Shown: positions 15,639 to 37,254 of the stretch, one piece after another
Numbering within the stretch: the first letter of the stretch is position 1
Layout of the letters: the number at the start of each line of letters is the position of its first letter
Assembly: GCA_000002435.2 (NCBI GenBank)
Contig: CM018791.1
Source of the DNA: Giardia intestinalis
Taxonomy: Eukaryota
Length of the DNA: 64,000 bases
Strand: one strand, 5' to 3'
Notes under the pieces: model-generated
Databases searched by the model: none
The model's input: only the letters and a program-made list of their open reading frames with translations
Told to the model about the DNA's origin: nothing
Translations under genes and position numbers: made by a program

Positions 15639-15648
15639 CCATATATAG

Positions 15649-17019: not shown

Positions 17020-17161
17020 CTTTTCTTATCTTCCCGGTAGGTAAGTACCAATCTACCAATCTACGTAACCTGCGACGCCTCGCAGGTTGCAAGGCGTCAC
17101 ACAGAAATAGATTCCCAGTGGCAGAGCCCGAAGAGTGGGGAGACCACGAAGCACTGGATGT

Positions 17162-17686: not shown

Positions 17687-17842
17687 TTTCGCCTCTAGAC
17701 TCCCGGACTCTCAAGGAGGAAACATTCACAAAAAGGAATATGAAATTAAAATGGATTGTGCTGCCGTGCAAGTTTTTTCGCATTAATTCCAGTTACATTT
17801 TTATTAAAGTGTGACCAGCGATTGCAAGTATTTTTGCTTCTG
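17687..17842. promoter_or_regulatory. 156-bp divergent promoter region between the RPS8e gene and the asteroid-like gene
   Basis: A/T-rich blocks (aaaaggaatatgaaattaaaatgg; acatttttattaaag; gtatttttgc) between outward-facing ATGs. Confidence 0.4.
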
Positions 17843-20332: not shown

Positions 20333-20434
20333 AGCTAACGAAGAGGGGTTAAAGGTTACAATGCAGGTCTTCTGAAGCACCCTAGTACAATCAAATGGGT
20401 AAGGTTGGTGTGAGGAGTTGCACGTATACCTGCA

Positions 20435-21295: not shown

Positions 21296-21383
21296 CCACT
21301 TTCTAATTATTACTAATTATTGCAAGGTATTACAAGGTGTTGCAAGGTTGATTGTCAACTGCTAAGGATCAATCAGTAATTGT

Positions 21384-24188
21384 CTATACGTTTACTACGC
21401 AACAGAGAAAGTAGCATTCTGCTGCAGGTGAAATCGAGAGAAAGAACCTGACTCCCCGTGGGATCGCAACACTCTCATACTGGCCAGTTGTGTACTCGGT
21501 TAGCTCTCCTTCTTTGGCCGATGTGTTTCCGTATAAAGAGAACCTAGCCCAGCCCTGAGATAGCTGGGTAATACAGTATCCGCTTGAGGTGATACGGTCA
21601 CTTTGGCCGACACCATAGAGGTGCCAGAGCATGGCCCCACCTGGCCGCTTACCATCAGCACGTTCCTCAATAATTCTGGCCATTTGAAGTCCATGAAAAT
21701 GCTCAAAGGAAAGCCCTGAAAAGCTCTTGAAGACATTGATGGACTGGGATCCTGATTTGTTGGTATACCAAAATCTATCCTCGTTGATTATGAGATTATT
21801 TTTTTGTACTATCCGTTGTATTCGTTCGGATTGCTTTTTTATGAAAAGTTGAGAATTTTCTAGACCAGCCCTAAAGTCGGCAGGTTGCTGACGTTTAGGC
21901 CGAGGAGGCTTATTCGGAATGAATGCGACCTTGACGCTTACAATGTAGGGTTTTTCTCCCGACGGATATGCGTACACCAAACCTTCTCCAATGGCCTTAT
22001 CAAGTTCTGGGACAACAATTCGCCCAGTACTGTGATCCCTGGGCAAGCAAGAATGGTCAACCGGGATGTTTTCTAGTTTAATATCCCGCACTTTTTTGGC
22101 ATTCATAACGGGTACTCCATACCTTCGACGAATCTCTTCTAACGTTAAGCCTGTCCCAGAGGTAAGGAAATTGCGGAGTTTATATGAGCCATAGACCTCG
22201 TCATATAGCTCCTTCCTAAAGTAGCTGTCGACAGTGCTGTGGTTCAGGTGGGCCATATCTATCTTCTTTGGCTTCTTCCGACTTGGTTCTGCCGGCTCGT
22301 CAACTAGACCCGATACAATGCTTTCGTTCGCTGGTACTTTTGAAGAAAAGCTGCCACTTTGCCTGTATGATTCCGTTTGGTCTATGTAATCAGTGGTATC
22401 GGCAACCGTAAACGGTTTAGATGTGCCTTCAGTAGCGTATCTATTGCCCTGATCATCTCCTTTATCCAGCTCGATTGGGTGCTGTAGGGGAGGCGGTGGA
22501 GTTAGGACGATCTTGCCATTCTTGTACGCTGGCTGTAAGTCCATCATTGTTAAAGTGTTATCTATAGATTTTGCAGCTGTCTTTGCATGCTCATCTTGGC
22601 GCCGAGGCTCAGCAGATGCTTCACGCGGAGATACTGAGATAGGAAATCTGGATGGATCTGATGTGTGCTCTCTGGAATTGGGGACAATGTTCAGTAGGTT
22701 TGAGGACTTTGCACTGCTACTAACTAAGCTTATATTCCGCTGAATTGCTTGGCCAATGGCTGTCATGCTCCGTCTAGGACGGTACTGGCTCTTGCGTATA
22801 TCTTCTACACCGATGATCCTGATATTGTCCTTCGTAGATTCTTGTAGATTTATAGACTCCATGAGTTCATTGGCAACAGAGTTAGTTGGTTTTTCTGGAG
22901 TAGCAGGGTCAATGGAGACATCATGAACAGAATGTGCTTCATCATGTGTGTGTCCTTGAATTGCTTGAACATTAATCACCTCCAGATCGGCAGGGGCCTG
23001 CTGTGGAGGCAGCTCCCTGCCTGCCACAACCTCGTGGAAGCGTTCTGGCGGTTGAATTACCGAAAACTTCCGTAGCTGTTTCACTTCTATGCCATCCTCT
23101 GCCTCGGTATCGTGATGTTTCTGTACGTTCTTTCTGGGGAGGGGCTGATGTCTTTGCTCTAAAACCTTTTGTGGTATCGGCTGCACTGAGTACACTTTTG
23201 CATCTGCCTCTTCTTTCTGCACTGTGTTTATATTATGGACCACGACAGACGCAGCTGTTTCTGAAGTTACTGCTGCAGCGATCACTGCTGGTTTTGGTAC
23301 AACTGGAGCCTCTCTCTCAGCAAAGTATGGGTCATGAAAAGAATCTGAACTCGAGGCAGATACGTCAGGATCTATCTGTTGACTGGATAAGTCAAGCATC
23401 CCCTTTTTCTTTTGAGCTCCCTCGAGTCGCCGGCCCTTTTGTGCTTTTTGTGTTATAGGTTTCTTTTGCTCTATCTTGGTTTGCTTCTCGTTGCCGACTG
23501 CAGCGGTAGTTTGTTGCTGTGGCGACTGCGGTGATTGTGATGATTGTACGTATGCCCATTCCACAGGCGAGGGCTTTTTCTCGAGGCCCTTTGGGCGTTT
23601 CTTCTTGAGTTTCTTCCTTTGCAAGACAGGATGCTTTGATACTTTGGGTGGAGCGTTATTTAGCTCCTTTTGATATGTTTTCATATAACTATCTTTACAG
23701 CTCTGCTCCACCTCAGCCAGCTGTTGCTCCTGGCTTTTTGGAAGGTGTGCTATATCTTTGTTATGCACGCTATCTATAGCACTAGCTTCTATGTGCTGGC
23801 TAGACTCGTCTGCGTTGATGGAGTCAAATTGAAAGAGGGAATCTTTTGCAAACACATCTGGAACTTCAAAAGCAGATGAGGCACTAGGGTGAAGAGCACG
23901 TGACATGGGAGCGGTACTGTTTGGCGATTGACCAAAGCCACTTAAACCAGCCAAGTTGCGTGACTGCTGACTTGCGAACTTGATTCCAGAATTCAGATTA
24001 TTGAGCATGTGCTTCGCGTCACTCAACTCACCTAGGCTTGTGGCACCTGAGGCATCAATCTCCGCGTCTCGTAAGAAGAGAGCAGCGTCATCTTTTGATA
24101 CGCCGGTGAGTCCTAGATTATCTTTTTGTAGTAACATGTTCCGACGGATTAGGCTTTCCATTGTCCCATTTGTATCTGCATTTGGCAT
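21384..24188 (-). CDS. large hypothetical protein (934 aa) with a low-complexity basic middle region and a structured C-terminal domain
   Basis: ATG at 24188. KKKRPKG/QKKKG basic stretches, S/T/Q-rich segments. C-terminal about 300 aa (…FWYTNKSGSQSINVFKSFSGLSFEHFHGLQMARIIEE…) looks globular but unassigned. Confidence 0.6.
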   Translation of the reverse strand: MPNADTNGTMESLIRRNMLLQKDNLGLTGVSKDDAALFLRDAEIDASGATSLGELSDAKHMLNNLNSGIKFASQQSRNLAGLSGFGQSPNSTAPMSRALHPSASSAFEVPDVFAKDSLFQFDSINADESSQHIEASAIDSVHNKDIAHLPKSQEQQLAEVEQSCKDSYMKTYQKELNNAPPKVSKHPVLQRKKLKKKRPKGLEKKPSPVEWAYVQSSQSPQSPQQQTTAAVGNEKQTKIEQKKPITQKAQKGRRLEGAQKKKGMLDLSSQQIDPDVSASSSDSFHDPYFAEREAPVVPKPAVIAAAVTSETAASVVVHNINTVQKEEADAKVYSVQPIPQKVLEQRHQPLPRKNVQKHHDTEAEDGIEVKQLRKFSVIQPPERFHEVVAGRELPPQQAPADLEVINVQAIQGHTHDEAHSVHDVSIDPATPEKPTNSVANELMESINLQESTKDNIRIIGVEDIRKSQYRPRRSMTAIGQAIQRNISLVSSSAKSSNLLNIVPNSREHTSDPSRFPISVSPREASAEPRRQDEHAKTAAKSIDNTLTMMDLQPAYKNGKIVLTPPPPLQHPIELDKGDDQGNRYATEGTSKPFTVADTTDYIDQTESYRQSGSFSSKVPANESIVSGLVDEPAEPSRKKPKKIDMAHLNHSTVDSYFRKELYDEVYGSYKLRNFLTSGTGLTLEEIRRRYGVPVMNAKKVRDIKLENIPVDHSCLPRDHSTGRIVVPELDKAIGEGLVYAYPSGEKPYIVSVKVAFIPNKPPRPKRQQPADFRAGLENSQLFIKKQSERIQRIVQKNNLIINEDRFWYTNKSGSQSINVFKSFSGLSFEHFHGLQMARIIEERADGKRPGGAMLWHLYGVGQSDRITSSGYCITQLSQGWARFSLYGNTSAKEGELTEYTTGQYESVAIPRGVRFFLSISPAAECYFLCCVVNV

Positions 24189-24262
24189 AGAGAGTTCTCT
24201 CTACGTCCTAAGCACTCAAGTAATTAATTTTTTGCTGAGTCAAAGAGAGATTGCGCAGGCGG
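24189..24262. promoter_or_regulatory. 74-bp bidirectional promoter
   Basis: aagtaattaattttttgctgag lies between divergent ATGs at 24188 (-) and 24263 (+). Confidence 0.4.
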
Positions 24263-24955
24263 ATGAGCAGGCAACTTGGGGATTTACTCGAAAACATAAA
24301 GGCGGCAGTATTCGACTTTGACGGGACTCTGGTCGATTCGCATAAGATATGGGCAAAAATAGATCAGGATCTTTTCGATCAACTGGGTCTAGTACAGCCC
24401 CCGAACTACGAAAAGGACATTGCTGGAAAGCGTCTACCAGAGATAGCTAAGTATATTATTGAGCACTTCCAGTTGACGAATGTGAGCCAGGAGAGAATTC
24501 TGAGCTGCTGGGAGGAAAGCTATATGAAGTACTTTTCCAGCTCAGCACAATTCATAGATGGCGCTGCCGAGTTTCTTACGTACTTGGCATCCAAAAACAT
24601 TGCCATCGGGATTGCCACTGCTTCCACACACAAACTAGTAGAGCTGTTTTTCTCCAACCATCCTGAAATACGTGCACTGATAAGTTGCGTAGTCACATCA
24701 GAAGACGTTGTGCACTCTAAGCCAGCTCCAGATGTTTTCCTGAAGTGTCTAGAGAGCCTAGGTGCTCATCCCAGCGAGGGGATCATTTTTGAAGACTCTC
24801 TTGTGGGTCTTTCTGCAGCTACCAAGACAGGAAGCAAGGTGGTTTGTATTCTTTCCCACCCTGATGACCATTTAGAAAAGAAAGAGCTGAGCCAGTTGCA
24901 AATTAACTCTTATTCTGAGTATCTGTATCAATCTCGTACACTGGAGGAAAGCTGA
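24263..24955 (+). CDS. HAD-superfamily hydrolase (beta-phosphoglucomutase/phosphatase-like)
   Basis: ORF track start 24251 is TTG; ATG at 24263. HAD motif I AAVFDFDGTLVDS, plus later conserved blocks (GIATAS…, IIFEDSLVGLSAATKTG). Confidence 0.75.
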   Translation: MSRQLGDLLENIKAAVFDFDGTLVDSHKIWAKIDQDLFDQLGLVQPPNYEKDIAGKRLPEIAKYIIEHFQLTNVSQERILSCWEESYMKYFSSSAQFIDGAAEFLTYLASKNIAIGIATASTHKLVELFFSNHPEIRALISCVVTSEDVVHSKPAPDVFLKCLESLGAHPSEGIIFEDSLVGLSAATKTGSKVVCILSHPDDHLEKKELSQLQINSYSEYLYQSRTLEES

Positions 24956-25121
24956 AGCAATCTTCTGGGCAAATCTGCATACACTGTAAGCATTGGAAAC
25001 ACTTGTGAGGGTCACGGAGAGAGATCTTGTTATTCTGGATGACGAGAATAGATAATGGGCAGGCTTGTACACACTGACCACAAAGGGTGCATGCATCAAC
25101 ATCCAAGATAATCCGCTGCAT
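24903..25121 (-). CDS. 2x[4Fe-4S] ferredoxin (72 aa)
   Basis: ATG at 25121. Two complete cluster-binding motifs, CTLCGQCVQACP and CFQCLQCMQICP. Overlaps the HAD gene 3' end by 53 nt on the opposite strand. The competing 129-aa ORF 24872..25261 (other frame) has no motif support. Confidence 0.7.
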   Translation of the reverse strand: MQRIILDVDACTLCGQCVQACPLSILVIQNNKISLRDPHKCFQCLQCMQICPEDCFSFPPVYEIDTDTQNKS

Positions 25122-25299
25122 AGTTCACAGAAAGAATTGGCTTTTTCTTTTAAATTTCTGGGAGCTGGTTTGTCAGCTGTTGTTCGAGTAAACTTATCAG
25201 GCAAGTCGTCGTGCTGAGTGGGATTCTCTCTCAGTCCATCTATCCAAAGTTCAAAATTCAAATTTCATCCAGTTTTGGGAAGAGGAGGAGCTAGTTGGC

Positions 25300-28240
25300 T
25301 CGTGAGCATGTCGATAGAGACGACTCGAAGCGGGATCCGGCAGACACTTGGCGGGATGATGGTACTGCAGGCGAAGAGAGCCCTCGCGCTCGCCACCCCA
25401 ATCGATCTCCCTACTAAAGAGCAAGCATGTGGCTGACTCCTAAAACGGCTGCCGCTATCACTGAACCCTCTCCCCAGCTGGGCTAGTCGTCAAATGGGAA
25501 GTGGCTCATGAACGCATCACCTCGCCTTTGGGGGCCCGATTCACCTCTACTGTATCGTCCATGGCGCTAAGATTTATGGAAGACACGCCTGCTCCAACAT
25601 CCCCAGGACGCTGAGAGAGATCAGAAGGCCTTCCAAGTCCTCTGGAGGCGTTTAGATGCAACTCCTAGCTCTTGCTCTCGGGAGACCTCGATAGGGATCA
25701 GCAACCAACACGTAGACTGCGACCTATGTAATCAAGACCTGGAACAGATGGCCTTCGTTATCGACAAGACAAGAACAGGTGATGGAGCTCCGTTCTCCCC
25801 GGATCCTGTGCTCCAGAGGAGGCAGGGCTTCCAGTCACTGACTGCCCCGACAGGAGTCATGCGTCTGCTGATGCTTTGTGAGGACCGCATGGACTCCGAC
25901 TCGTGCCTATACACTGTGGATGCTGTGGGTCTCTCGAGGGAGATGCTCCGACGCCATAACAAGAACAGAAGCCTCAGGTGCACATGTGAGAGCTTGACAC
26001 GGGATATAGAGCTGATTCAGGCCTCATCTAAGAACCTGGGGGCGTTTCACACGCTGGAGGATACCAGGATTGGGGGAATCCCCATCGTCTGTTGCCCCAA
26101 ATGCTTCAGCACCAGAATGGCGAGTAGGAGACATCTGGCTAAAACGAAACACTCTGTGCTGATGTGACACCAGATGACAATCACTCAAGCATGAACAGGA
26201 CGAGCATCTGCCCGCTCTGTACAAAACCCACTGGAGCCAGAGCTATCCGAATGTACTGTGGCACAGACAGCAAGTGCAGGGTGCTACTGCGCGAAAGGAT
26301 GGAGATGGCAGAGGAGATGCACCTCGTCACACTACGGGCCACTACATGGGCAACACCCACCAGAAGGTTCCGAACAAGAATAGGCCACCGAGCGCATGAA
26401 GGACCCCCTGGCGAAGAGCAGCTGCCGCCCCATGGGGCTCCTCTCCCACGGGCCCCCTCGACCCGGACTCCTCAGAGGGGATCAGGGTAGCGTACGAGCT
26501 GCACCCTGGAGGGACACGAGCCCCCTGTCCTACAGCCAGCGGAGAGCACGGGCATCTCTCCCAAGGTCACTGACGACGAGATGACCCGGGGGTCCGTCCA
26601 TGGGCTCTCGAGGTCTCCTGGACCTTACCTGGACCTGCGTACTGGGGGTCCTCATCCCCAAGAACGAGGCAAGCATAACCTGTGGAGCGACCACGACGGC
26701 CCTTTACAGATACTACCGGGCCATCTGAAGTCCCAGGCGCTGGACACTGGGGCTTGCATGCACGTGTAGTGTGCGCTCGTATGTGCACACGAGACTGAGG
26801 AAGCCAGGCGGTCTTGCTCGACTCCAAGGCGCCCTCAACAGCAGCCCCGGTCCTGCACAGTCTCGGCCAGGAGAACGCGCCCCTCGCCCTGAGGAGCTAC
26901 ACGTGGCCTTCCTCTGGCTACAGCACACATGGACTCGGTCCCGTGCAGTGTTCCTCAGGGACCCTCTAGGTATGTTCCTATGCTGCGCTGGACGGAGCGC
27001 GCTCACTAAACAGCTGAAGGAGATGCCCCCTCAGTGCCTACGCCGACGGCGTACTGATCCTTCACGACGACAACAACGAGGTAATGAGGTTGACAAACCC
27101 ACGGACTGACGATCAACACAGACAACTCAAGAGCACCGAGGGGGCAGGAGGCTCCTTCCTGGGTGTCCGGTCTCGAGGAGCGGCTACCCACGGCCTCCAA
27201 GGAGATAGAGAGGGCAACGAAAAGGTTGCAACTGTGTCAATCGCCCACCACCCCGAGCCGAGCTGGTCTGGACAGACTCACCACGCGACCCCTACGGATC
27301 CCTCGGGGGGCAGGCAGAGCCCTCTGGGATGCTCGGCTCGAACAACAGCAGACCGAGCTCCTGGCTACGCAGGACAGCGGCGGTCGGGAGTCCACCACAA
27401 GCAGCTGCGCGGTGCTTGACACCTCGACGTGAGACGTGGCATCACAGCAGGCTGCCGAGCGGGACGGCCTCGTGGTGAGCAACGCATCGTACATGAACTG
27501 TGCTCTGATCGCTCCAATACTTCAGATAACGCCTCTCGGAGAGCTGTGACCGGGCCAGCCTCTCCGGCTGAACGACTCATGGCTCCACGTACACTCTGCG
27601 GCACGGATGGGTGCAGACCACACCAGCCGAGCCGGCACACTGCACAGGGTGTGGACCTGCGAGTGTGTACTGGCTGCTGACCACCTGGCACCACAGGTGC
27701 ACTGCGGTCCATGAACAGAAGGGCGGGCCGGGCGTTTCCTCCGCGCCAACCAGGGGTCGATATGGAGGCTACGGGTACACGCTACAGTCCAGGAGGACGC
27801 ATGGCGAGCGCACCCCGACAACAGGATCGATGGTCCACTCCACGAGGAGGCGAGAAGGAACCCGAGTCGGCATCCCGGGATTATAATACATGCGATCTTC
27901 GTTATGGAGCGCCAGCACCGAGTGGCCCTGGGTTGTACGGCCGGGAGCACTATTCCTAAGGTCAGATAGCAGCTGATCCAAGGGGACTGAGTGAGAGAAG
28001 CGAAAAACCTAGATCGATATCGTGAGAGACGGGACGGTGACTTGCAAAGCGAAGAACTATGATATTTCCCCTTTTCTGCCAGAGCTGGACAGTGTCCGAA
28101 TTTCCGATTCCAAATGCTGGACACACTGAGCGAGGATGCCGTTCAACATAGTGACTCGTACGATGGACTTACTCAGACTGCGGCCAGCAAACCAACTTCT
28201 TTTTGAAGAGAAACGACAGATTTATTCATGAGACTACAGA
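25300..28240. other. GC-rich (about 60%) ORF-poor island, roughly 3 kb, nature unknown (candidate decayed mobile element, pseudogene or ncRNA locus)
   Basis: Only short overlapping ORFs in all six frames, typical of non-coding GC-rich DNA. No A/T-rich initiator or long ORF. The composition differs from the flanking ~48-50% GC coding DNA. Confidence 0.4.
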
Positions 28241-28245
28241 GCAGT

Positions 28246-29093
28246 CTATTGGTCATTGCAACCATTGACACTAGGTGTACTGCCCCTAAGGAGAGACGCT
28301 ATCTCGAGGTATCCCCTAGAAGTAATCTTGTCAAAGAAATATTCATTAGACTTGTCTATCAGATGCCCCTCTTTTTCTAATAGAAGCTTTACCACTTCTA
28401 AGTGGCCCTTTAGCGCTCTATGTTCAAGAGCAGTCATCTCATTCCTATCCTTTACACCCCCCTCCAGATCTACTAACAATCTTGCTATTTCCACGTTCCC
28501 CATAGAAGCCGCGTTCATAAGCGCAGTCATACCTACCATGTTTTGTGCACCACTGTCGTATCTTATTACCAACTTTGCTGTCTCTATGCAACCGTGTGTG
28601 GCTGCTCGCATAAGCCTCGTGTCGCCGAATGTATCGGTTGGCTCAAGAATAATCACAATAATTTTGTGCCCTGCCTCCTTAGCAATCATCAGGGCCATCT
28701 TGCCTTCGCTGTCGATTAAGTTCTCCTCATATGGAATCAAAATGGAAGCAGCTTCTGCGCTGCCTTTTTCTACAGCGATCATCAGAGCAGTACGGCTGTT
28801 CTTGTTTCTTCTCCCACATTCGTAAGGGGCAAGAATTTCAACTACATCAGAGTAGTTGCTGTGTGCGGCGTGCATGAGTGCAGTCCAGCCGTTCTTGTCC
28901 TGGAGGCCCCTCTCCTCCCCAACAAGCAACTCGACGGGACTGATGCGCCCCTGCTCGTCGCGCTGACCAACACCAAGTCTTCTTCAAGCAGCATCCGGAC
29001 GGTCTCCATGCCGTTCGTATGCGCAGCACGCATCAGCCCGGGCAGCAAAAAGAGGCTGGACGAGGCCAGCCGTGCATTCTGTGGACTGTGCAA
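28246..29093 (-). pseudogene. ankyrin-repeat C-terminal portion of the same NEK-ankyrin gene, interrupted by two frameshifts (likely pseudogene or assembly error)
   Basis: Ankyrin consensus continues from the kinase frame into frame 2 (PGLMRAAHTNGMETVRMLL) and then frame 3 (LLVGEERGLQDKNGWTALMHAAHSNYSDVVEIL… for about 220 aa). The shifts fall at a T5 run near 29040 and at a 62-nt segment at 28927-28988 flanked by the direct repeat tgcttg. Confidence 0.5.
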
Positions 29094-30135
29094 GCCTATT
29101 CTCCAGTGCCTTAATCATAGCTAGATGTTCCTTACTTTGATCTTCAAGCGCGTCGATCTTAGTGGATTTAGTCTTAACATCCTCTTCCAGCAGCGCGATC
29201 CTGGCGTTAGCGCCATTCAGCGCAGCCTCCAAGGATCCGCACTTGTACTTCAGCATCACGCACTGACCCCCCAGCTCACCAACTGGGATGTCAGCCGCAG
29301 TGAGTGTCTCATGCAGCTCACTGGCTGTCGGCCTCCTCTCTGGCTCCAATACAAAGATCCTCTCCAGAACATTCTGTATGAAGCCATCAGTGACACCGCT
29401 CAGGTCCGGCCTCCACTCATCGACGAAGACCTCTGCTGGCTCCTTACCTTTCAGGAAGTCCGGTTTCCTTAGAGTGGCCATCTCGTAGACGATGACCCCG
29501 AGGCTCCACACGTCAGAGGCGGGGCTGGGCTCGTTGTGGAGGAGCACCTCGGGGGCCATGTACGCTGCCATGCCTGCAATGGTGCTCTCACTCCACAGGG
29601 CGTCCTTGCAGAGTTCGAGGCCAGCGATGATGAAGTACTCACCATCTACACTGACGAGGGTACTGGCAGGCCTGAGGTCGCAGTGGACGAGGCCTCTAGT
29701 GTTTGCCCCACTGAGGCCGTGGAGGTAGGCGAGGGCGGCGGCGACCTGCTTCATGACAGAGAGGATCATAGTGATAGGGACGGGGATCCTCCCTCGTTTG
29801 TGCTTGGCGAGGGGGCGCTCGAGGGTACTGTCGTGGTGGTCCGTGACGATGTAAATGAAGTCATCATCCTCGACCACTTGGTAGTGCCTGAGGACCCCCG
29901 GGTGGGAGAGGTCGAGAAGGGCGGTCAATCTTGTCTTGATGGCGTCCAGATCCCCCTTGTCCAGACCATCGAGGAGGATCTCCTTCACGGCGAGGTCTGG
30001 AAAATCCCTGAGAGAGTAGAGTGTGCTTGTGGGGTCTTTGGCCAGCACGTCATCCAGCCCCTCGTGGAGCTCCCTAGGGGTGAACGGTGGGACACTGAGA
30101 GCCACCGTTGCAGACCCAGACGAAGCAGTGTGCAT
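28984..30135 (-). CDS. NEK-like serine/threonine kinase domain plus coiled coil; predicted catalytically impaired; 5' part of a disrupted kinase-ankyrin gene
   Basis: ATG at 30135 after CCAAAATAATACCAGG. Kinase subdomains are present (VAVKEI lysine, YMAPEVL, DVWSLGVIVYEM), but the catalytic loop is HCDLRPAS (HRD Arg lost) and DFG is replaced by IAGLE. A coiled coil (LEAALNGANARIALLEEDVKTKSTKIDALEDQSKEHLAMIKALENRL) is followed by an in-frame stop after a frameshift. Confidence 0.6.
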   Translation of the reverse strand: MHTASSGSATVALSVPPFTPRELHEGLDDVLAKDPTSTLYSLRDFPDLAVKEILLDGLDKGDLDAIKTRLTALLDLSHPGVLRHYQVVEDDDFIYIVTDHHDSTLERPLAKHKRGRIPVPITMILSVMKQVAAALAYLHGLSGANTRGLVHCDLRPASTLVSVDGEYFIIAGLELCKDALWSESTIAGMAAYMAPEVLLHNEPSPASDVWSLGVIVYEMATLRKPDFLKGKEPAEVFVDEWRPDLSGVTDGFIQNVLERIFVLEPERRPTASELHETLTAADIPVGELGGQCVMLKYKCGSLEAALNGANARIALLEEDVKTKSTKIDALEDQSKEHLAMIKALENRLAQSTECTAGLVQPLFAARADACCAYERHGDRPDAA

Positions 30136-30441
30136 CCTGGTATTATTTTGGTAATCTACCGTTTTGGAAACGGTCCGTTTTACATGGGTTCATATCTACA
30201 GGTCTACAGCGGTCCTGTATCTGTGGGGGCTTCTGTATCAGGAGCGAGAAGACCACCCGTGCGACCGTTTTACCCACCGGTGTCCTAGCGCTGGCTGGGG
30301 GCAAGAAAGCCTGCTCTCTTCTGGCCTCTGTGGAAACGGGTGGCTGTGTGCCCCACTGACAGCCATCACTTCACCCTATTGGCTAGCCGTCCCCCTGCAC
30401 AGCTGGAGAGGCCCTAGTACATTATCGAATGCGATCAACAG

Positions 30442-31116
30442 TTAGGCGAGTTCACTCATGGGCTTTCTGGGTGGCATCCGTAGCTGGGGCTCCTTCAGTC
30501 CAACGCCTTCACTCTCAAGAAAAGATACTATCTCGGAATGCTTCCAAATACTGGCCACGGAAAGAGCAGACATACCGCCTACATTCTTTTCCCTCTTCAG
30601 CAGTAACTTGACACAGTCTAGACGACCATAGCATGCTGCAAATGAGAGGGCAGTGCAGCCACGACACTTTTCCATGCAGCCCTCAACCTCCAGGAGTAGC
30701 CTCACGACCTCGGTGCGACCGTTTGCTGCCGCCCACATGAGGGCCGTCAGCTCGGTACTGCTTTTCATACCATTCTCGTGCTCCATTAACAGCCTCACAG
30801 CCTCAACGTGTCCAAGCACTGCAGCGACCATCAGGGCCGTCCCCCCGTGTATATCTACCATCCCTGCCTTGACAAGCTTTGCCACTTTTCCTGCCTGATA
30901 AGGAATGTAGCGCTCTACCGCATCCACGTCATTTCGTTTGGCCGCCTCCATGAGCTCGGTGACACCGTCCTCATCCTCGTCCTCATCAGTTACCTGCGGA
31001 GACCTAGTGGGACTGCTCTCGCCCACATCCTCATCATCTGTGTCCTTTTCAAGCATGAGGGGTGAGGTGTCGTCGTGCTCCTGAGAGTAATGATCTGAGT
31101 CATCCGCAGACGACAT
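30442..31116 (-). CDS. ankyrin-repeat protein with acidic N-terminal tail
   Basis: ATG at 31116 after GGAAATAAAAAATG. D/E-rich N-terminus (TDEDEDEDGVTELMEAAKRNDVDAV), then 4-5 ankyrin repeats (TALMVAAVLGHVEAVRLL…). Confidence 0.75.
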   Translation of the reverse strand: MSSADDSDHYSQEHDDTSPLMLEKDTDDEDVGESSPTRSPQVTDEDEDEDGVTELMEAAKRNDVDAVERYIPYQAGKVAKLVKAGMVDIHGGTALMVAAVLGHVEAVRLLMEHENGMKSSTELTALMWAAANGRTEVVRLLLEVEGCMEKCRGCTALSFAACYGRLDCVKLLLKREKNVGGMSALSVASIWKHSEIVSFLESEGVGLKEPQLRMPPRKPMSELA

Positions 31117-31923
31117 TTTTTATTTCCTATATCACAAAGGAAATACGTGTAACAGAAACTTGCGATTCACGGTATTATTTACAAATCATCCAGATAGCAT
31201 ATTTGCAGGCGAACTGATGATTTACTTCACCCATTGGGTACTTCCAGCTCTGACCGCGGTATCTGTTCGTGAGCGCGGTCCGGAGGTCTCCTAGGCAAAC
31301 CGCGCTCGATTCCTGGTAATCCCTAGAGATGAAGGTCGGCCGTGGGTAAGATAATTAGGAGCTTCCCTCTATTAATATAAAAGGACGATCAGAGACCAAT
31401 GCAGCTGCCTGCATCGGCACCTCCGCGTCTCTGGAGGCTCAGCCAGGGCCAGGGATCAGGCACAGCCACCCAGCGACCAGAGCGGAGGTCGAACATCTGG
31501 TCCGCCGAAAAGTGCGAAATGCTAGCGGGGCGTTGTCCAGTCACCAGATGGACTACCCAAGGGGAAGGCCAAGAACCGTCTCGAGATCCCCTATCTGAGC
31601 CCTGCATCGTTCGGGGAGTGAGGCGAGCCCGACGAGACCGGCCAAAGCGCCGCTTCCTGTCAGTGTGCTCCTAGCTTGGGACGGATCCGCAGGGCCATGA
31701 CAGCCCGTGAGCGTAGGAGGCTACCAGCGGGGCCAGAGAACTGTCCAGTTATACTGCAACACAGACATCGAGTGTAGAGCGTAACTGCGTAAAGGGATGG
31801 GAATGAAAAGAAGAAGGACCTTTTCTTCAGCACTCATCGTGCAAGCATGTTCAGGAATGATACCCACCTGCTCGCGTCCTGAGGCTTAGTTGCTGGTCAA
31901 CCCTGGCCACTGACTGTGCTTCA

Positions 31924-32508
31924 CTAGCCCATAAGGAACATGAGGCGGTATGCAGCATCGTCGTAACCCTGCTCGATAGACTCGGAGTCGGATACTAGGC
32001 CCCACGCAGGCGTGTCCTGGTCTTCGTGGACAGGTCCGCAAACCGGAAGACTCGCAGGGCGGTTGGACTCCATATCCGTTTGTGGAAGTGCCTGTGCTTT
32101 ACAGTATGCTGCATGAATCCGGGGATGGTCGATGGGGGAAAGCTCTGCAACGAGGTCTGTAGGCCTCAGCTGCTCCAGCCGCAAACCCTGCTCCTCCATC
32201 CTGTACGCCAACCGGAAGAGCAGCCGGCCATACTCCCGCCGCTTATGGCGGTAGGCCGTCCAGGCGGCGCGAATGTCGTTCCGGACCTTGCAGCGCGCCG
32301 CATTTGCTGACCGGCCATCGAGCCCAGCGGCCACCCGAGTCCAGGAGGTCCCGTGTTGTAGGAGAAGGACAGCAAGCTGCACTTCTTCGTCCTCGGTCCA
32401 GGGCCTATTCCGTTGACTTTGCGACCCGTCCCTCTGTGCCTGCTCTCCGGCCAGTCCTCCTGTGCAGCGCGCTTGTGTTCCTTCCTGGCGATGAGGCCTC
32501 GGTGGCAT
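31924..32508 (-). CDS. Myb/SANT-like single-repeat DNA-binding protein
   Basis: ORF track start 32574 is GTG; first ATG at 32508 follows GCGAAAATAGTTCC. Repeat WTEDEEVQLAVLLLQHGTSWTRVAAGLDGRSANAARCKVRNDIRAAW has the three spaced Trp of a Myb repeat. Very GC-rich. Confidence 0.55.
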   Translation of the reverse strand: MPPRPHRQEGTQARCTGGLAGEQAQRDGSQSQRNRPWTEDEEVQLAVLLLQHGTSWTRVAAGLDGRSANAARCKVRNDIRAAWTAYRHKRREYGRLLFRLAYRMEEQGLRLEQLRPTDLVAELSPIDHPRIHAAYCKAQALPQTDMESNRPASLPVCGPVHEDQDTPAWGLVSDSESIEQGYDDAAYRLMFLMG

Positions 32509-33203
32509 GGAACTATTTTCGCATGGAGCTGGGACGCGCGCACCCCTGTGATGGAAGTTGCATGCAACTTCCACTTTTCTCTATCTCGGCCACCCTTCAA
32601 CGTCGCGCCTTTAGGACACAGATACCCGTTGCGGCACGCAAACATTGCACAGGCTCGGACTCCCGTCCTTCGAACTCGCATAGCCATGAAGTCAAAATAG
32701 TTTGCACGTCGGAAACGTTCACCGAATCATCACAAACGTAAACGAACGTGGATAGAGAAGTGTGGGTTCAAAGGAGATCTTTCTAGCTTGGAAACAGGGT
32801 ACGTAGAAGGCTTGCACCACCATCGTCTGCTTCGTTAGCAGTGCAACTGTCGGCGAAAAGACCGCTAGCTGCATGTGGTAAAGAATATGCTTGGCTATTT
32901 ACTCTACGGCTGGATGCAGAGTCTATTTGGCGGAAATCCAAATAGTCAATCCTATATGTAAAATAAAATTGCCACACTTTCAGGCAACATATGAGAGACA
33001 CAATTTATCAATGATTGTGTGTTCCCGAGCTTCTATGATTTACGTAGTTTGGCAACTAAAGGATAGATAATCTTAGCTTAGTAAGTAAAATAGGCGGTTT
33101 GACAATACATAATGATTAATCAGATTTTAATGATGGGAGTCACAGATCCCCTGATCTGAAGTTTCATAGTGCTATGTTTAAATTGATAAATCACTTCTAC
33201 AAG

Positions 33204-35330
33204 TTAAATCGCCACGTCGACAGCTGTATTCTTAGCTTCGACGGTACCATCCTCATTGGTACAAAGGTTTTTAGAAAGTATTCTTTGAATCAAAGCCTCT
33301 GCGTCTGTGTCATCTTTAATGTGCTGATCCCCAGTGCTCAAAGAAACATACTTAGTATCTGGATAGACCGTGTTCATCCGCTCATTAACATATACCGAAG
33401 GAGGCTTCTGGTCATATAATGCGACAGATTTTTCCTTCGCAATATCCTCTTGCTCAATGATTCCTAGCTGCTGCCGATACCGTGCTATTTTCTCAAGTGT
33501 CTCTGCGCGCATAGAAAGTAGCGAGTTAGTTTGTGCTAGCCCCGTAGAAAATTGACCTCCCTTGGACGCATGCCACGCGTCAATGGGGTAATTTGTCCTT
33601 ACACCTTCCGTGTCCCGTAAAATAGTAACCAGGTGTTGCTCATCAGCCCGTAGCTGGGCTAAGATATTTGATATTGCATCGAAGTTGGTTCCTGTCATAT
33701 CAAGATCATCTTTTTTCAACAAGTTTAGTTCATAATACGTCTCGTCTGGAATAGAAATAAGTGGTTTGTTTGTTAGATTCTTTTCTGGCAATGTTACCTG
33801 CGGCTCCAAATCTAAGGAGGAGCTTTGTTTCTTAGATTCTGTGGCTGTATCTCGAGCAGTGTGACCTGAACGAATGGACTGTGCTGTCACGGGTCTGCAT
33901 AAGGGGGCTTCTGATTTTGCTGCTATGTGCGGAAGACACCCCACCCTTGTGATAGATGTGCGCTGACCAGATCGTATCTCTCCAGAGAGCATGGAAAAAT
34001 CGAATGGCCTACTTTCTGCTTTAGACTTCAATAGAGCAGCTGGGGCCATCTCTTCGCCATATGATGTTATCCTGCACCCGGATGAATCCCCATGCACCGC
34101 CGCGCGTGCTATAGTCAGAGGAAGTGACCGTCCTCTGAGCCTTCCAGTCTTCCTGAACGGAGCTGTTGTCCGCTTGATCATTGCGGTGTTGCTTCCTCCT
34201 GCTTGCCTGGGAATCGTGGCCATAGCTAGCTTTTCACCACCATTGATGTGATTACGTGTCTGTAACTCGCTGATCGCAATGATGTCTCGTCGATCAATCT
34301 CATTGAGAATTCTTCTGTTCAAAAGCTCTATTGCATCTGGAGTAGGATGGGCTGAATAATTTTTACCCAACATGGCAGCATCAGGGGTTATCCTCTTCCA
34401 CTTGCGTGGTGGGGCCTTAGAGACCATCCGAACCGCCTCTTCAAAGTCCTGGCCATTAATCTCGTAGGTTCCATCTGCACCTGACATAGAGATAGTAAGT
34501 CTGTCATATTTGGGGCGTTTGTTTCCGTTATATTTTCCTTTACCAAAAGAAGCGTCCTGGAGACGATCTGCTGAAGTAAATCCTCGGGCACTCATTGTAC
34601 GTAGCCGACTCTTTAGGTGCATCAGGTGTTCATCAACCTCTTCCAAAAGTAAGCGAGTGGAAACTTTATCGCTACACAGATGCTGTGACCCTCCGTGCGA
34701 AGTCACTTCATAGTTCGGATTTTCCTCACATTCTTCATCCACATAACTATGGCCATCGTTGAGCTTGTCTTCACAAAGCTGAAAAGACTCGTCTGTGGCC
34801 ACTGAGGAGAGACTATTATCCCTATCATTGACGTCAACCTGATAGGCGGATTGGCGTGGATACCTCACAGCGTTCATCGTTACCTTGAGCCGTTTTTCTT
34901 TCATAAGGGCGTCCATGTCAACATGAGGTCGAGCCTGTGCATCTATTTTAAACAGGTCGTCAAATTGCAGCCCATACGCATGCCCTGTAGAAGCTCCATT
35001 CTCCATGGTGTTCCTCATCAGCCTCCCCAGCCCTGGAGACAAGGTAACATGTGTGGGTGCTGGCATAGACTTGAATGTGACTAGAGGGTCTATGGTGTGG
35101 TGTGGCTTAGCAAAGTGAAGGGGTTTCGGCATAGTGGTTTGCTTTAAGTGGTAGGACCCGTCTGTATACCACCAGTTCTCATTTTCAACGGGAAGGTCAG
35201 ATTGAAGCAGTGCTGGGCTTTCGGATGCTTCTCCACCATGCTCATCTATCTCGCTATCCTCCACCTCATTCTCCGTATCACATGCTTGCTGTGTGGCAGG
35301 ATCATCAGTGTGCATGAGTGACGACTGCAT
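33204..35330 (-). CDS. hypothetical protein (708 aa)
   Basis: ATG at 35330 after GGAAATAAAAAAGG. Acidic N-terminus; no recognisable motifs. Confidence 0.6.
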   Translation of the reverse strand: MQSSLMHTDDPATQQACDTENEVEDSEIDEHGGEASESPALLQSDLPVENENWWYTDGSYHLKQTTMPKPLHFAKPHHTIDPLVTFKSMPAPTHVTLSPGLGRLMRNTMENGASTGHAYGLQFDDLFKIDAQARPHVDMDALMKEKRLKVTMNAVRYPRQSAYQVDVNDRDNSLSSVATDESFQLCEDKLNDGHSYVDEECEENPNYEVTSHGGSQHLCSDKVSTRLLLEEVDEHLMHLKSRLRTMSARGFTSADRLQDASFGKGKYNGNKRPKYDRLTISMSGADGTYEINGQDFEEAVRMVSKAPPRKWKRITPDAAMLGKNYSAHPTPDAIELLNRRILNEIDRRDIIAISELQTRNHINGGEKLAMATIPRQAGGSNTAMIKRTTAPFRKTGRLRGRSLPLTIARAAVHGDSSGCRITSYGEEMAPAALLKSKAESRPFDFSMLSGEIRSGQRTSITRVGCLPHIAAKSEAPLCRPVTAQSIRSGHTARDTATESKKQSSSLDLEPQVTLPEKNLTNKPLISIPDETYYELNLLKKDDLDMTGTNFDAISNILAQLRADEQHLVTILRDTEGVRTNYPIDAWHASKGGQFSTGLAQTNSLLSMRAETLEKIARYRQQLGIIEQEDIAKEKSVALYDQKPPSVYVNERMNTVYPDTKYVSLSTGDQHIKDDTDAEALIQRILSKNLCTNEDGTVEAKNTAVDVAI

Positions 35331-35391
35331 CCTTTTTTATTTCCCATTTCCGCGAGAGAAACAATCAGATAGAGAGTCTTTGTCCAGTAAT

Positions 35392-37254
35392 TCACATATT
35401 ATCTTCATTGTGTTGATCGTTCTGTGTAGCAGATGAGCGCTCATCTTCTCTGATAAGGGCGTCATCTTCTGGCCGCAAGACCTTCACGGATACCTTGTGG
35501 GGCTCCGGAATACTAATGGGAATTTTAGAGATCAAACGCGGATTGAGGCGCGCAATAGCAATGACTCCATATATGATAAATGGGATTCCCAGTGAAAAGA
35601 GACCAATTATGACCCAACACGTTTGCCGATAGTCAAACTTTATTGAGATATAACGAACTACTGGTATGAAAACTGAAGAGATTATATACTGAAGAGAGAA
35701 CACCAGGCCCAAGCTTGTCGCCGGAATCTTCCGCCCCGCAAGCGTAGTAATAACAAACGCAAAATTAGCTGCAAAGAAGCCTATTGAAATACCCAAAAAG
35801 GACATGGTTACTTGTGCAGAGAAAGCATTCTGGAACTTTTTTACCGCACCGAATATATATAGCGTTATTTGTGCCACAGTGTACATTATAGTTCCTAACA
35901 GGACAAAGAAGATTGGGCCAAAGTATGACAATCGGGACAGTAGGCCACTTATAAACAAAAAAATGGACGACAAAAGCTGGCTCAGACCAACGGCTAGCAC
36001 TGCGTCCTCATTTTTGATATTCAAGATGGAGGTGAGTGATAGAACAGAAGTTGCATTAAACGTACTAACAGCACCTATTACAAGGATTCGCGGGACCATA
36101 ACCATGAAGAGAGCCAAGGGTGCTTCCCTAATAGATCTGAACGAAGATAGGAACAGCTCCTTACAGCGTCGACAGGTGCACCTGCGAGTGCGCCTATTGG
36201 GGAGCTGATAGGTGATCTTCTTATTGCGTAAAGGAGCAGACTCGTCGCAGATAGTTATTTCCATAGTTTCTTCTGTTCCCATGACGCATGTGATGGACCC
36301 TTCAAATGAACAGAGGGTACTTATATCATTGATAGAAGCATCTGGATTGTCAAAATATACCATTATTTCAGATTGTGTAAACATTTGAGACGGCAGCTTT
36401 GTAGCGACTTCGCCTTTGTCGTCAGGGTTCCAATTCCTTGAGCGAGAGCGCGGGATAGCGAACTGTGATAGAAGAGTCTTGTTGTACTTGGCGGATGAGA
36501 CAGAAATGTTAGTCCTAGGATGCTCTATGCAGGACTGTGTCTCTGGCAGAGTCTCTGGAAAAGGAGTGTTAAGCTCTGCATTGGCTAACATATTTTGGCG
36601 CTGCAGATCTGCGATCGCCACATACTCATTCAGGAGATCGTCAAAGTACTTTCTCCTTACCTCCAGAAAAGTGTAGACAGCTCCTAATGTGGTAGAAAAG
36701 AATATCAAACATGCACATAACAAATAAGCCTCTCGAAGATTATTCATGGACCCTATCACGATACTTGCCAGCGTATGTCCAAGCATGACGCTAGCAAAGA
36801 TCAGCCCGAACCCCACTGGTTGCCAGCGGAGCGGTATGAAGTACTGCATGAGCCGTGCCTGGACCATGATCACAGCCTCGCCAGAGAGGCCAGAGGCAAA
36901 CTGGGCGATAATAAATTGAGTAGCCGTGGTGCAGAATGCACATGCTACTGCACAGAGAAGCTGCAGAACATGAATAGGAACTAGAAAATACTGGGGCCCA
37001 AATGTGTCTATAAAGAATGAAACAAGGAAAGTGCTGAAAAAGCACTGTACAGAGTTAATAGTTGCTGTGAGAGAGATGATGTCTTGTCTCTGGAAGGTGT
37101 CAATAATTAGTTTTGATAGAGGATTGGAGGAGCTTGTAAATATGTTAACAGGAACGAGCGTTATTGAGATAAAGAATATGTGGACGACGATAAGCGTTCC
37201 CTCAGTGCAGCGAGAGCGTCTGCGCAGCGGCATGAAGGACGCAAGCTCGTCCAT
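35392..37254 (-). CDS. MFS transporter (6+6 TM with a large central cytoplasmic loop)
   Basis: ATG at 37254 after AGTACTAAAATG. Two hydrophobic six-helix bundles separated by a soluble loop of about 190 aa. Confidence 0.65.
   Translation of the reverse strand: MDELASFMPLRRRSRCTEGTLIVVHIFFISITLVPVNIFTSSSNPLSKLIIDTFQRQDIISLTATINSVQCFFSTFLVSFFIDTFGPQYFLVPIHVLQLLCAVACAFCTTATQFIIAQFASGLSGEAVIMVQARLMQYFIPLRWQPVGFGLIFASVMLGHTLASIVIGSMNNLREAYLLCACLIFFSTTLGAVYTFLEVRRKYFDDLLNEYVAIADLQRQNMLANAELNTPFPETLPETQSCIEHPRTNISVSSAKYNKTLLSQFAIPRSRSRNWNPDDKGEVATKLPSQMFTQSEIMVYFDNPDASINDISTLCSFEGSITCVMGTEETMEITICDESAPLRNKKITYQLPNRRTRRCTCRRCKELFLSSFRSIREAPLALFMVMVPRILVIGAVSTFNATSVLSLTSILNIKNEDAVLAVGLSQLLSSIFLFISGLLSRLSYFGPIFFVLLGTIMYTVAQITLYIFGAVKKFQNAFSAQVTMSFLGISIGFFAANFAFVITTLAGRKIPATSLGLVFSLQYIISSVFIPVVRYISIKFDYRQTCWVIIGLFSLGIPFIIYGVIAIARLNPRLISKIPISIPEPHKVSVKVLRPEDDALIREDERSSATQNDQHNEDNM

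Follow-up and report, generated by a model that had tools for sequence, protein, structure and literature searches.

The NEK-kinase, coiled-coil and ankyrin gene that occupies positions 30135..28246 on the minus strand of the window (the whole stretch analysed, 64,000 nucleotides of Giardia intestinalis contig CM018791.1) is GL50803_114495, or GK118. It is a broken copy of a fast-evolving Giardia kinase–ankyrin gene, catalogued before and already known. Very probably it descends from one ancestral Nek-GL4 gene that decayed in the assemblage-A (WB) lineage, with a 62-nt segment that is ancestral and a product reduced to a truncated, dead kinase.

A catalogued member of the Nek-GL4 family

All of the best database matches are Giardia proteins named 'Kinase, NEK'. 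An earlier note on this DNA had rightly recognized a NEK-type kinase, a coiled coil and ankyrin repeats in a diplomonad gene. In Table S1 of Manning et al. (2011, Genome Biol 12:R66), GL50803_114495/GK118 is entered in row G094 as Nek-GL4, 'Pseudogene', with seven Ank repeats, and is flagged 'N - multiple GiardiaDB', i.e. as overlapping several gene models or ORFs. The WB kinase pseudogenes number 30, and 29 of these are GL4 (Manning et al., 2011). Two portions of the conceptual translation of GK118 in that paper agree with the present gene, one containing MHTASSGSATVALSVPPF... and the other the upstream VK*WLSVGHTATRFHRGQ... stretch. The family is known to duplicate, undergo gene conversion and decay rapidly. 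Our own comparisons place the gene in the same family: its N-terminal protein kinase domain is most like NEK kinases, it clusters with named GL4 members (being itself GK118, and identical to GK106 at 244/250 residues across the kinase C-lobe and coiled coil), and its C-terminus is a TALM-type ankyrin array.

GK106 (GL50803_137743; P0016), classed as 'Dead Nek - missing K72, D184', also shares with GK118 the HCD and GLE motifs, the linker and ankyrin repeat 1. Unlike GK118, it runs uninterrupted through MLLEERLGVGQRDAQGMTALMHAGQQGHVDPVELLVGEENG and has a full-length repeat 2; its N-terminus is truncated, and identity in the ankyrin array is just 41%. GK101 (GL50803_137735), GK119 (GL50803_119989), GK102 and GK140, all flagged as pseudogenes, have the shortened repeat 2 of GK118 (...GQRDEQGRISPVELL or ...EQGHVSPVELL) as well as LLPGLMRAAH, but they read the segment in frame with repeat 1 and carry their disabling lesions elsewhere. 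Locus L002 encodes an intact 755-aa NEK (P0003), with 82% nucleotide identity over 2 kb, behind the same upstream Ank gene that occupies 30,442–31,116 in the window. P0003 and the 697-aa P0001, encoded on WB chromosome 5, are intact and collinear with the whole gene in a single-frame alignment, which for P0001 covers 30135..28225. In contrast to GK118, these two proteins have intact HRD/DFG or HCD/DFG motifs, their repeat 2 is complete, the ankyrin repeats are more numerous and the reading frame is undisturbed; protein identity is 58–61%. The DNA comparators are 78–84% identical and are not collinear in the repeat array.

A predicted dead kinase followed by a coiled-coil-like segment

The kinase ORF has 383 codons and ends in TGA. 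The earlier note had put this stop immediately after the coiled coil, but the last 33 residues are not coiled coil. Residues 1–350 are genuine kinase and coiled coil and are identical at 350/350 positions to the old WB model (P0006; XP_001709905.1). Residues 351–383 (STECTAG...DAA) are an out-of-frame tail, namely the linker and ankyrin repeat 1 translated in the wrong frame. A homology search with this window-specific C-terminus returned only paralogues, with matching that ends at ...RLAQ, and no protein or contig in the searched collections contains the tail.

Among solved structures, the top matches of the kinase domain include human NEK2 and NEK7 (∼1e-14), with a CDPK marginally better. 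In the alignment to NEK2 and NEK7, Lys51 (LAVKE) is present and Asp153 is kept within HCD at 151–153. The NEK2 alignment and the paralogues, which carry HRD...ADFG at the corresponding sites, show that the catalytic-loop Asn has become Ser158 and that DFG has become GLE at 172–174 (ADFG to AGLE, 171–174). Replacement of the DFG Asp means that at least one of K72, D166 and D184 (PKA numbering) is lost, as in a pseudokinase. The domain is accordingly predicted to be catalytically dead (DFG to GLE, Asn to Ser), and the same conclusion had been reached earlier from HCD in place of HRD and the missing DFG Asp, both of which are seen in the NEK2 alignment and the paralogues. For the coiled-coil-like segment, Table S1 of Manning et al. 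(2011) gives one coil for GK106, the near-identical paralogue, and a blank cell for GK118. The features of the gene are collected in Table 1.

Table 1. Features of GL50803_114495 and its promoter (coordinates are positions in the window)
Feature	Coordinates	Strand	Details
Two CTGTAG motifs	30196..30209	−	74 and 66 nt upstream of ATG; regex scan
Kinase ORF	28984..30135	−	383 codons + TGA at 28986–28984
Protein kinase domain	29311..29994 (aa 48–275)	−	Pfam Pkinase 1.9e-25
Coiled-coil-like segment	29086..29289 (aa 283–350)	−	GELGGQCVMLKYK...IKALENRLAQ
25-nt patch	29061..29085	−	33 nt here in relatives (FGDRMNTAGPQ)
Ankyrin repeat 1	28980..29060	−	27 codons, SSLFLLPGLMRAAHTNGMETVRMLLEE, shifted out of kinase frame
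T5 run	29047..29051	−	Not a lesion; CCTCTTTTTGCTG identical in L007
First TGCTTG hexamer	28985..28990	−	Leu-Leu of repeat 1 (...M L L E)
Premature TGA	28984..28986	−	Ancestral CTG CTT GAA read out of frame
62-nt segment	28923..28984	−	End of ankyrin repeat 1 and shortened repeat 2 (RLGVGQRDEQG|RISPVELL)
−1 lesion	28980..28981	−	AA, AAA in relatives (GAAGAA-GA); returns reading to kinase frame
Ankyrin (TALM-type) array	28246..28980	−	244 codons + TAG, co-framed with kinase
33-nt in-frame deletion junction	28947..28948	−	MTALMHAAQQG of ankyrin repeat 2 removed
Second TGCTTG hexamer	28923..28928	−	Leu-Leu of repeat 2 (...E L L V)

Two small lesions around ankyrin repeat 1

The frame map and the DNA alignments confirm that the gene is disrupted by two frame changes. 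The earlier note had distributed it over three frames, whereas we find only two: the shift is confined to the 27 codons at 29060–28980, and the ankyrin ORF lies in the frame of the kinase ORF. The note was right that an ankyrin-like stretch lies in another frame. This stretch is ankyrin repeat 1, which tblastn aligns at 27/27 identity in frame −3 and which is 26/27 identical to P0016. From 28980 on, identity is 54/54 in frame −2, and the final array, which the note had placed in a third frame, belongs to the kinase frame. Its ORF of 227 aa (28246..28929, minus strand) matches Ank_2 at 7.8e-37, and the array contains the motifs WTALMHAA, RTALMIAV, KMALMIAK, TRLMRAA, MTALMNAA and MTALEHRA. The kinase and ankyrin ORFs are co-framed because the lesions total −9 nt.

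DNA alignments to L007, L001 and L002 place the upstream frame change in the 25-nt patch at 29085–29061, where four deletions (4, 2, 1 and 1 nt) and one substitution give a net change of −8. The patch reads TCCACAGAATGCACGGCTGGCCTCG and the patch-free version TTCGG(A/T)GACAGAATGAACACGGCTGGCCCTCAG; an ungapped tblastn frame map also locates the shift here. The T5 homopolymer, to which this change had been attributed (at about 29035–29050), lies at 29051–29047 and is read as SSLFLLP in both P0006 and P0016, and the shift is 10–35 nt upstream of it, in the cluster of small deletions. A slip in the homopolymer is ruled out by the identity of the run in L007 and the old WB model.

The downstream change had been ascribed to the 62-nt segment; its actual cause is the loss of one A from GAAGAA(A)GA, with GAAGAAGAC in place of the lesion-free GAAGAAAGAC at 28,985–28,978. 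Paralogues read this site in one frame as MLLEERLGVGQRD. The tail of P0006 (...MLLEEDLVLVSATSRG...) implies the identical −1 lesion, and the tail sequence ...MLLEEDLVLVSATSRGASVPSSCLLGRRG...TTLM corresponds to frame −3 of the window; the old WB model thus independently carries both the −1 lesion and the deletion of 33 nt, whereas it does not imply the −8 patch. The premature TGA appears because the ancestral codons at that point are read out of frame. Relative to intact homologues, the disabling changes are the net −8 patch, the −1 lesion and this TGA.

The most probable course of events begins with a Giardia-specific Nek-GL4 gene whose ancestral product would have been ∼632 aa long, with a kinase, a coiled coil and a TALM-ankyrin array. 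The kinase frame continues to ...ALENRLAQ (29086), at which point 25 nt in place of 33 nt (net −8) move the frame and leave ankyrin repeat 1 (29060–28980) unread in its own phase. The missing A at 28981–28980 brings back the kinase frame, but the TGA exposed in the shifted stretch would by then have terminated translation at codon 383. The expected product would be a truncated, catalytically dead kinase with a coiled coil and without the ankyrin array. Translation probably does stop at the TGA, so that the ankyrin part is probably not made. Combining GAAGAAAGA with the full 33-nt linker would yield an intact ORF of 632 aa.

The 62-nt segment is ankyrin coding sequence

The earlier note had suggested that the pseudogene arose when a segment of 62 nt, with a direct repeat at its borders, was inserted or duplicated, together with a frame change at the T5 run. 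The 62-nt string is indeed present, at 28984..28923 rather than 28927–28988, and TGCTTG stands on both sides of it, although this repeat is a hexamer of 6 nt and not a 7-bp repeat. Removing 28984–28923 also brings ...VRMLL and VGEERG... together in frame, as had been claimed. Homologous in-frame sequence is present, however, in the DNA of L002, L001 and L007 and in the WB proteins P0016/GK106, GK101, GK102 and GK119, an outcome that the note itself had named as one that would speak against an insertion. GK101 and GK119 read the counterpart as MLLEERLGVGQRDEQGRISPVELL and P0016 reads it as VRMLLEERLGVGQRDAQGMTALMHAGQQGHVDPVELLVGEENG; the segment itself, in the kinase frame, translates to RLGVGQRDEQGRISPVELL, 100% like a GL4 consensus. 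By these alignments the 62-nt segment belongs to the original coding region of ankyrin repeats 1 and 2. A full repeat would be longer, and the difference goes back to an older in-frame deletion of 33 nt, flanked in L002 by GCA(A/G)GGG microhomology. The shortened repeat 2 (EQGRISPVELL) is also found in the WB paralogues GK101 and GK119, and the deletion therefore predates the GK118 copy.

Nor do the junctions distinguish the segment. The gene contains 46 direct repeats that match exactly over 6 nt or more at a spacing of 30–110 (28.7 ± 5.5 in shuffles), and the TGCTTG pair, being one of 46 comparable pairs and no longer than expected by chance, is therefore unremarkable. Its two copies encode Leu-Leu at equivalent positions of neighbouring ankyrin repeats. 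The 'ankyrin-perfect junction' is the outcome of removing any one unit from the repeat array. More generally, deleting one unit of an ankyrin or other tandem-repeat array always joins the remainder cleanly, and tandem-repeat domains are expected to contain short direct repeats at homologous codons; neither feature is evidence for insertion. With the T5 run also unaltered in relatives, we regard an insertional or duplicative origin, with a target-site-like repeat, as vanishingly improbable.

Origin of the −8 patch

The −8 patch appears to be biological and not an artefact of assembly, but here the evidence is divided. The patch could instead be an assembly or consensus error, or a mix-up of alleles or paralogues in a repeated block, in a gene that carries the −1 lesion alone; we consider this a serious contender, though not the favoured one. 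P0006 reads FGDRMNTAGPQSSLFLLPR at this point: the −8 patch is missing from the 2007 WB model (433 aa), which also differs in having Arg for Gly (LLPR/GLMRAAH) and has everything else in common with GL50803_114495. Translations of the patch occur in none (0/124) of the retrieved homologues, and the length of the linker is constant in the 19 homologues where parsing is possible. Four deletions within 25 nt are also an odd natural pattern in a tract that is otherwise 244/250 aa identical to GK106. That paralogue lies on another chromosome and is ∼98% identical over the tract, where mis-mapped reads can corrupt a consensus.

The surroundings of the gene bear on the same question. Logan contigs based on Illumina data, with SRR3596236 and SRR3177927 among the source runs, match the unique flanks at 100% over 10,966 nt and 5,714 nt, and the window is thereby WB-like Giardia duodenalis of assemblage A. 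Contigs anchored on the two neighbouring genes stop at 25,349 and at 30,336 or 30,403. None of the short-read contigs searched crosses the locus, and the 5-kb block at 25,350–30,335 is crossed by no Logan contig read. The ORF products of this block are absent from the collection, whereas the flanking genes are found in ∼100 blocks each; exact-product look-ups gave no match for the kinase ORF, the ankyrin ORF, the frame-shifted ORFs, the internal-Met sub-ORFs of both sequence versions or 10 ORFs of the flanking block. Within the block, the ORFs of the GC-rich flank at 25.3–28.2 kb have no Pfam domain, and this flank has no similarity to VSPs and no second copy in the window. A search of 24,000–33,000 against Rfam returned no family at the gathering threshold.

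Several observations favour a genuine patch. The unique flanks differ from the Illumina contigs at zero sites over 16.7 kb, and the assembly is generally accurate. The nearby Arg-to-Gly change (LLPGLMRAAH) is also present in the WB paralogues GK101, GK102 and GK119, which fits genuine paralogue-type variation, and the old Sanger assembly could itself be a chimera with GK106. At the level of data quality, the 2007 protein model and the present sequence differ by 8 nt within a 25-nt patch, inside a block of ∼5 kb that short-read assemblies do not cross. This disagreement may reflect a local error in one of the WB references, or else a difference between alleles or paralogues. If the patch were an artefact the gene would still be broken: it would encode the 433-aa product of the 2007 model, in which the kinase and coiled coil are followed by ankyrin repeat 1 and then by 47 aa translated out of frame.

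It is also conceivable, though distinctly unlikely, that the patch is both real and recent, a complex deletion that re-phased a gene which the −1 lesion had broken before. An encystation-induced transcript under Myb2 control would then carry the dead kinase and the open ankyrin array of 244 codons in one frame, with one TGA between them. In that event the locus would be one point mutation, or low-level readthrough, away from a full-length scaffold protein, and the GL4 'pseudogenes' would be a store of encystation proteins that retain some function or can be re-activated.

Splicing and recoding

The arrangement of kinase and ankyrin ORFs in one frame with a single TGA between them, an ankyrin frame that remains open for 244 codons, and the transcription and regulation of the gene might together suggest that the whole gene functions by splicing of a small TGA-containing intron, by a double programmed frameshift or by readthrough. 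Giardia uses the standard genetic code, and its introns have the consensus 5' GTATGT (or CTATGT) and a 3' branch and acceptor of the CTRACACRCAG type. Neither the 5' motif nor the 3' motif (CTRAC...CAG) is found anywhere in 30135–28246, and relatives have ordinary coding sequence in this interval; an intron is ruled out on these grounds. We know of no such recoding described for Giardia. The sister copies P0023, P0027, P0028, P0042 and L007 are broken at differing positions, a pattern that indicates decay and not a conserved recoding site. Expression of the whole gene by any of these routes is extremely unlikely.

Expression and significance

The decayed Nek-GL4 gene retains a promoter that still works. 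The CTGTAG motifs upstream of its ATG are the reverse complement of the Myb2 consensus C[T/A]ACAG, and GL50803_114495 has been reported as a GlMyb2 target with a promoter site, identified by ChIP-seq and RNA-seq with a value of 5.7 (PMC9547401), and as induced in encystation (PMC9094438). A pseudogene is expected to lack expression or a functional product; here the transcript is detected, encystation-induced and Myb2-dependent. From its induction in encystation and its status as a Myb2 target, the gene is therefore either a transcribed pseudogene or the source of a truncated scaffold protein.

Beyond annotation hygiene the significance of this gene is small, as it is one of ∼30 described WB Nek-GL4 pseudogenes. 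Several GL4 'pseudogenes', GL50803_114495 included, are among the Myb2-regulated, encystation-induced transcripts. The label 'pseudogene' may understate the role of truncated GL4 products.

A catalogued NEK–ankyrin pseudogene with a -1 lesion and a possible -8 patch

Every hit to the repaired protein in a database homology search was a 'Kinase, NEK' or ankyrin protein of Giardia duodenalis. One of these, P0006 (XP_001709905.1), annotated in 2007 as 'Kinase, NEK' in strain WB ATCC 50803, is identical to the window gene at 350/350 positions over the kinase and coiled coil. Row G094 in Additional file 1 of Manning et al. 2011 (PMC3218828) lists GL50803_114495 (GK118) as a Nek-GL4 'Pseudogene' with 7 ankyrin repeats and the remark 'N - multiple GiardiaDB', meaning that it overlaps several gene models. 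The GK118 conceptual translation in that row includes the N-terminus of the window gene and its upstream region. Because this row matches the window gene, the object has already been catalogued; the locus is an ordinary pseudogene, described before. Of the 30 kinase pseudogenes that the same study counts in WB, 29 belong to GL4, a subfamily with fast turnover (PMC3218828).

Features of the NEK–ankyrin locus, with the ancestral reading path traced by ungapped tblastn using a GL4-type peptide
Feature	Coordinates	Strand	Details
Kinase ORF	30135..28984	-	383 aa; Pfam Pkinase 1.9e-25
Ankyrin ORF	28929..28246	-	227 aa; Ank_2 7.8e-37
End of kinase frame, ...ALENRLAQ	to 29086	-	ungapped tblastn
SSLFLLPGLMRAAHTNGMETVRMLLEE in the other frame	29060-28980	-	27/27 identity, ungapped tblastn
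RLGVGQRDEQGRISPVELLVGEERGLQDKNGW..., back in kinase frame	from 28980	-	54/54 identity, ungapped tblastn

Three-frame translation places the kinase and ankyrin ORFs in one reading frame, separated by a single TGA (28986-28984) and 18 codons, with the ankyrin-like SSLFLLPGLMRAAHTNGMETVRMLLEE between them in a second frame; the third frame proposed in the earlier note was not found. An intact Giardia paralogue of 697 aa, P0001, can be aligned across 30135..28225 without any change of frame. At the upstream lesion, where relatives read CAGTTCGGTGACAGGATGAACACGGCTGGCCCTCAGTCCAG, nucleotide alignment to the close relative L007 gives CAGTCC----ACAGAATG--CACGGCTGG-CCTC-GTCCAG for the window. These deletions of 4, 2, 1 and 1 nt leave 25 nt (29085-29061) in place of 33, and the same net change of -8 is obtained from alignments to L001 and L002, contigs from other Giardia assemblies. 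The T5 run to which the first shift had been assigned (29051-29047) is unchanged in L007 and is read as SSLFLLP in P0006 and in the WB paralogue P0016 (GK106); the frame does not shift there. The downstream lesion is one base missing from GAAGAA(A)GA at 28981-28980, a site that relatives cross in a single frame as MLLEE-RLGVGQRD. Together the two lesions total -9 nt, and the kinase and ankyrin ORFs are therefore co-framed. The premature TGA is an out-of-frame reading of ancestral CTG CTT GAA.

The kinase was aligned to human NEK2 and to paralogues. Lys51 (LAVKE) is kept, HRD has become HCD at 151-153 with the catalytic Asp retained, Ser158 replaces the catalytic-loop Asn, and ADFG has become AGLE at 171-174. 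The kinase is thus predicted to be dead through loss of D184, as the earlier note had proposed, and the condition is common in the family: 71% of WB Neks are 'dead' under the K72/D166/D184 criterion of Manning et al. (PMC3218828).

The 62-nt segment belongs to the ankyrin array

The 62-nt string that had been taken for an insertion or duplication lies at 28984-28923 and reads RRLGVGQRDEQGRISPVELL in the kinase frame. In P0016/GK106 the homologous segment is read in one frame as VRMLLEERLGVGQRDAQGMTALMHAGQQGHVDPVELLVGEENG; the WB paralogues GK101 and GK119 have MLLEERLGVGQRDEQGRISPVELL, and GK102 has ...EQGHVSPVELL. The full repeat 2 is found both in P0016/GK106 and in the intact gene on contig L002. 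Since relatives carry homologous sequence, the segment is the tail of ankyrin repeat 1 followed by repeat 2 without 33 nt (MTALMHAAQQG). The junction of this 33-nt deletion, 28948|28947, falls between GCA(A/G)GGG microhomologies, and the deletion is common to other GL4 copies and is therefore older than the window locus.

The flanking direct repeat, described as 7 nt, is 6 nt long (TGCTTG), and the gene contains 46 comparable pairs, against 29 +/- 5 in shuffles. Both hexamers are Leu-Leu codons at the equivalent position of successive ankyrin repeats. Their spacing of 62 equals one repeat (96) minus 33 minus 1, because repeat 2 is shortened and the -1 lesion lies between them. Deleting the segment does give a repeat-perfect junction, but taking any single unit out of such an array has the same effect. 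An insertion bounded by a direct repeat was rejected as the mechanism because the segment is homologous and in frame in P0016/GK106, GK101, GK102, GK119 and L002, and in-frame paralogues were what the earlier note itself had set against it. The broken NEK–ankyrin gene and the dead kinase stand from that note; the 62-nt insertion, the T5 slip and the three frames do not.

Biological lesion or assembly discrepancy

Both sequence versions (the window and P0006) carry the -1 lesion and the 33-nt deletion, and the out-of-frame tail of P0006, ...MLLEEDLVLVSATSRGASVPSSCLLGRRGASRTRTAGLHSCTPHTATTLM, is the second frame of the window. The gene is broken whichever version holds, and the remaining discrepancy between them is 8 nt. 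At the position of the -8 patch P0006 reads FGDRMNTAGPQSSLFLLPR. Linker length is constant in the 19 homologues where it is parsable, the patch translations of the window are absent from all 19, and the window-specific sequence matched no product or contig in the collections searched.

The patch lies inside a tract (kinase aa 100-350; 29,086-29,838) that is identical at 244/250 aa to GL50803_137743 (P0016/GK106), which is on another chromosome (a different chromosome-scale scaffold), whereas the ankyrin arrays (28,246-28,980) are identical at only 70/169 positions (41%). This disparity between the C-lobe and coiled coil and the ankyrin array marks the gene as a mosaic, which suggests that GL4 copies have recently undergone gene conversion with one another.

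In the unique flanks, Logan contigs built from Illumina data are 100% identical to the window over 14,384-25,349 (0 mismatches in 10,966 nt) and 30,403-36,116. About 45 short-read contigs anchored on neighbouring genes all end at 25,349 or at 30,336/30,403. Ten ORF products from inside the ~5-kb block 25,350-30,335 were looked up in a 15-billion-protein collection and none was present, while each of the flanking genes turned up there in about 100 blocks. Given these contig ends and missing products, the block behaves as repeated or hard-to-assemble sequence. For the -8 patch, the odds are close to even between a real complex deletion and a fault in one of the assemblies at the level of consensus, allele or paralogue.

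Neighbouring sequence

The region 25,300-28,200 is GC-rich over 2.9 kb, reaching 69% GC in 200-nt windows against 48% window-wide. It holds no convincing ORF and has no VSP similarity, its ORFs lack Pfam domains, and Rfam gave no family at the gathering threshold over 24,000-33,000; one could at most guess at the remnant of a degraded mobile element. A stop-free 198-aa frame (25,571-26,164, plus strand) has unnamed homologues at 81-94% identity. A 95% identical copy of 25,306-26,193 occurs among other genes in another Giardia assembly (L006), and right after it comes a segment with 81% identity to 31,724-31,862 (L006 6,560-7,604 for the pair). These pieces, adjacent in L006, are parted in the window by ~5.5 kb that contains the GC-rich DNA, the NEK pseudogene and an ankyrin gene of 224 aa.

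The latter, a stand-alone small ankyrin-repeat gene (30,442-31,116, minus strand), lies directly upstream of the NEK gene. The order is the same in the divergent contig L002, where a 237-aa Ank gene (912-1,625) precedes the intact 755-aa NEK at 82% nucleotide identity. The 5' flank (30,136-30,400, minus strand) shows homology to sequence that in other GL4 genes lies upstream or forms an N-terminal extension, VK*WLSVGHTATRFHRGQ...KRTVSKTVDYQNNTRM; in the window it carries stops and frame changes and contains a Logan repeat boundary at 30,336.

Expression

ChIP-seq and RNA-seq place GL50803_114495 among the GlMyb2 targets (value 5.7), and its promoter contains a Myb2 site (PMC9547401); the gene also appears in a list of encystation-induced genes (PMC9094438). 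The motif CTGTAG occurs twice before the ATG, at 74 and 66 nt. The SAGE signal is minimal (R 0.93, max 2.7). Neither premature stop is followed by an AGTRAAY-like signal, and 18 nt past the final TAG the sequence reads TGAATAAA. One transcript probably spans the entire former gene, with translation predicted to end at the TGA.

Decay recurs among GL4 copies

The locus is best read as a transcribed GL4 paralogue in decay, whose likely product is a truncated dead kinase with its coiled coil, 383 aa long in this sequence, or 433 aa long should the patch prove spurious. No Giardia intron motifs were found within the gene. Contig L002 is likely the positional orthologue from another assemblage: it shares the upstream Ank gene and 82% identity over 2 kb, but its NEK is intact (755 aa), so the decay is lineage-specific.

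Sister copies are broken at differing points near the same linker/ankyrin-1 junction. Stops follow ...VQMLL in P0023, ...RAAHK in P0027 and ...RAAQE in P0028; P0042/L001 (L001 3,001-4,653) has a 2-nt deletion, GCTG--CACACG; and a separate 2-nt deletion in L007 (274-525) creates a TAG, ...RAAHE-TAG. Such scattered breakpoints point to relaxed constraint rather than to a conserved recoding signal. Since GL4 copies of other assemblies are broken at different positions of this junction, independent decay recurs at this point.
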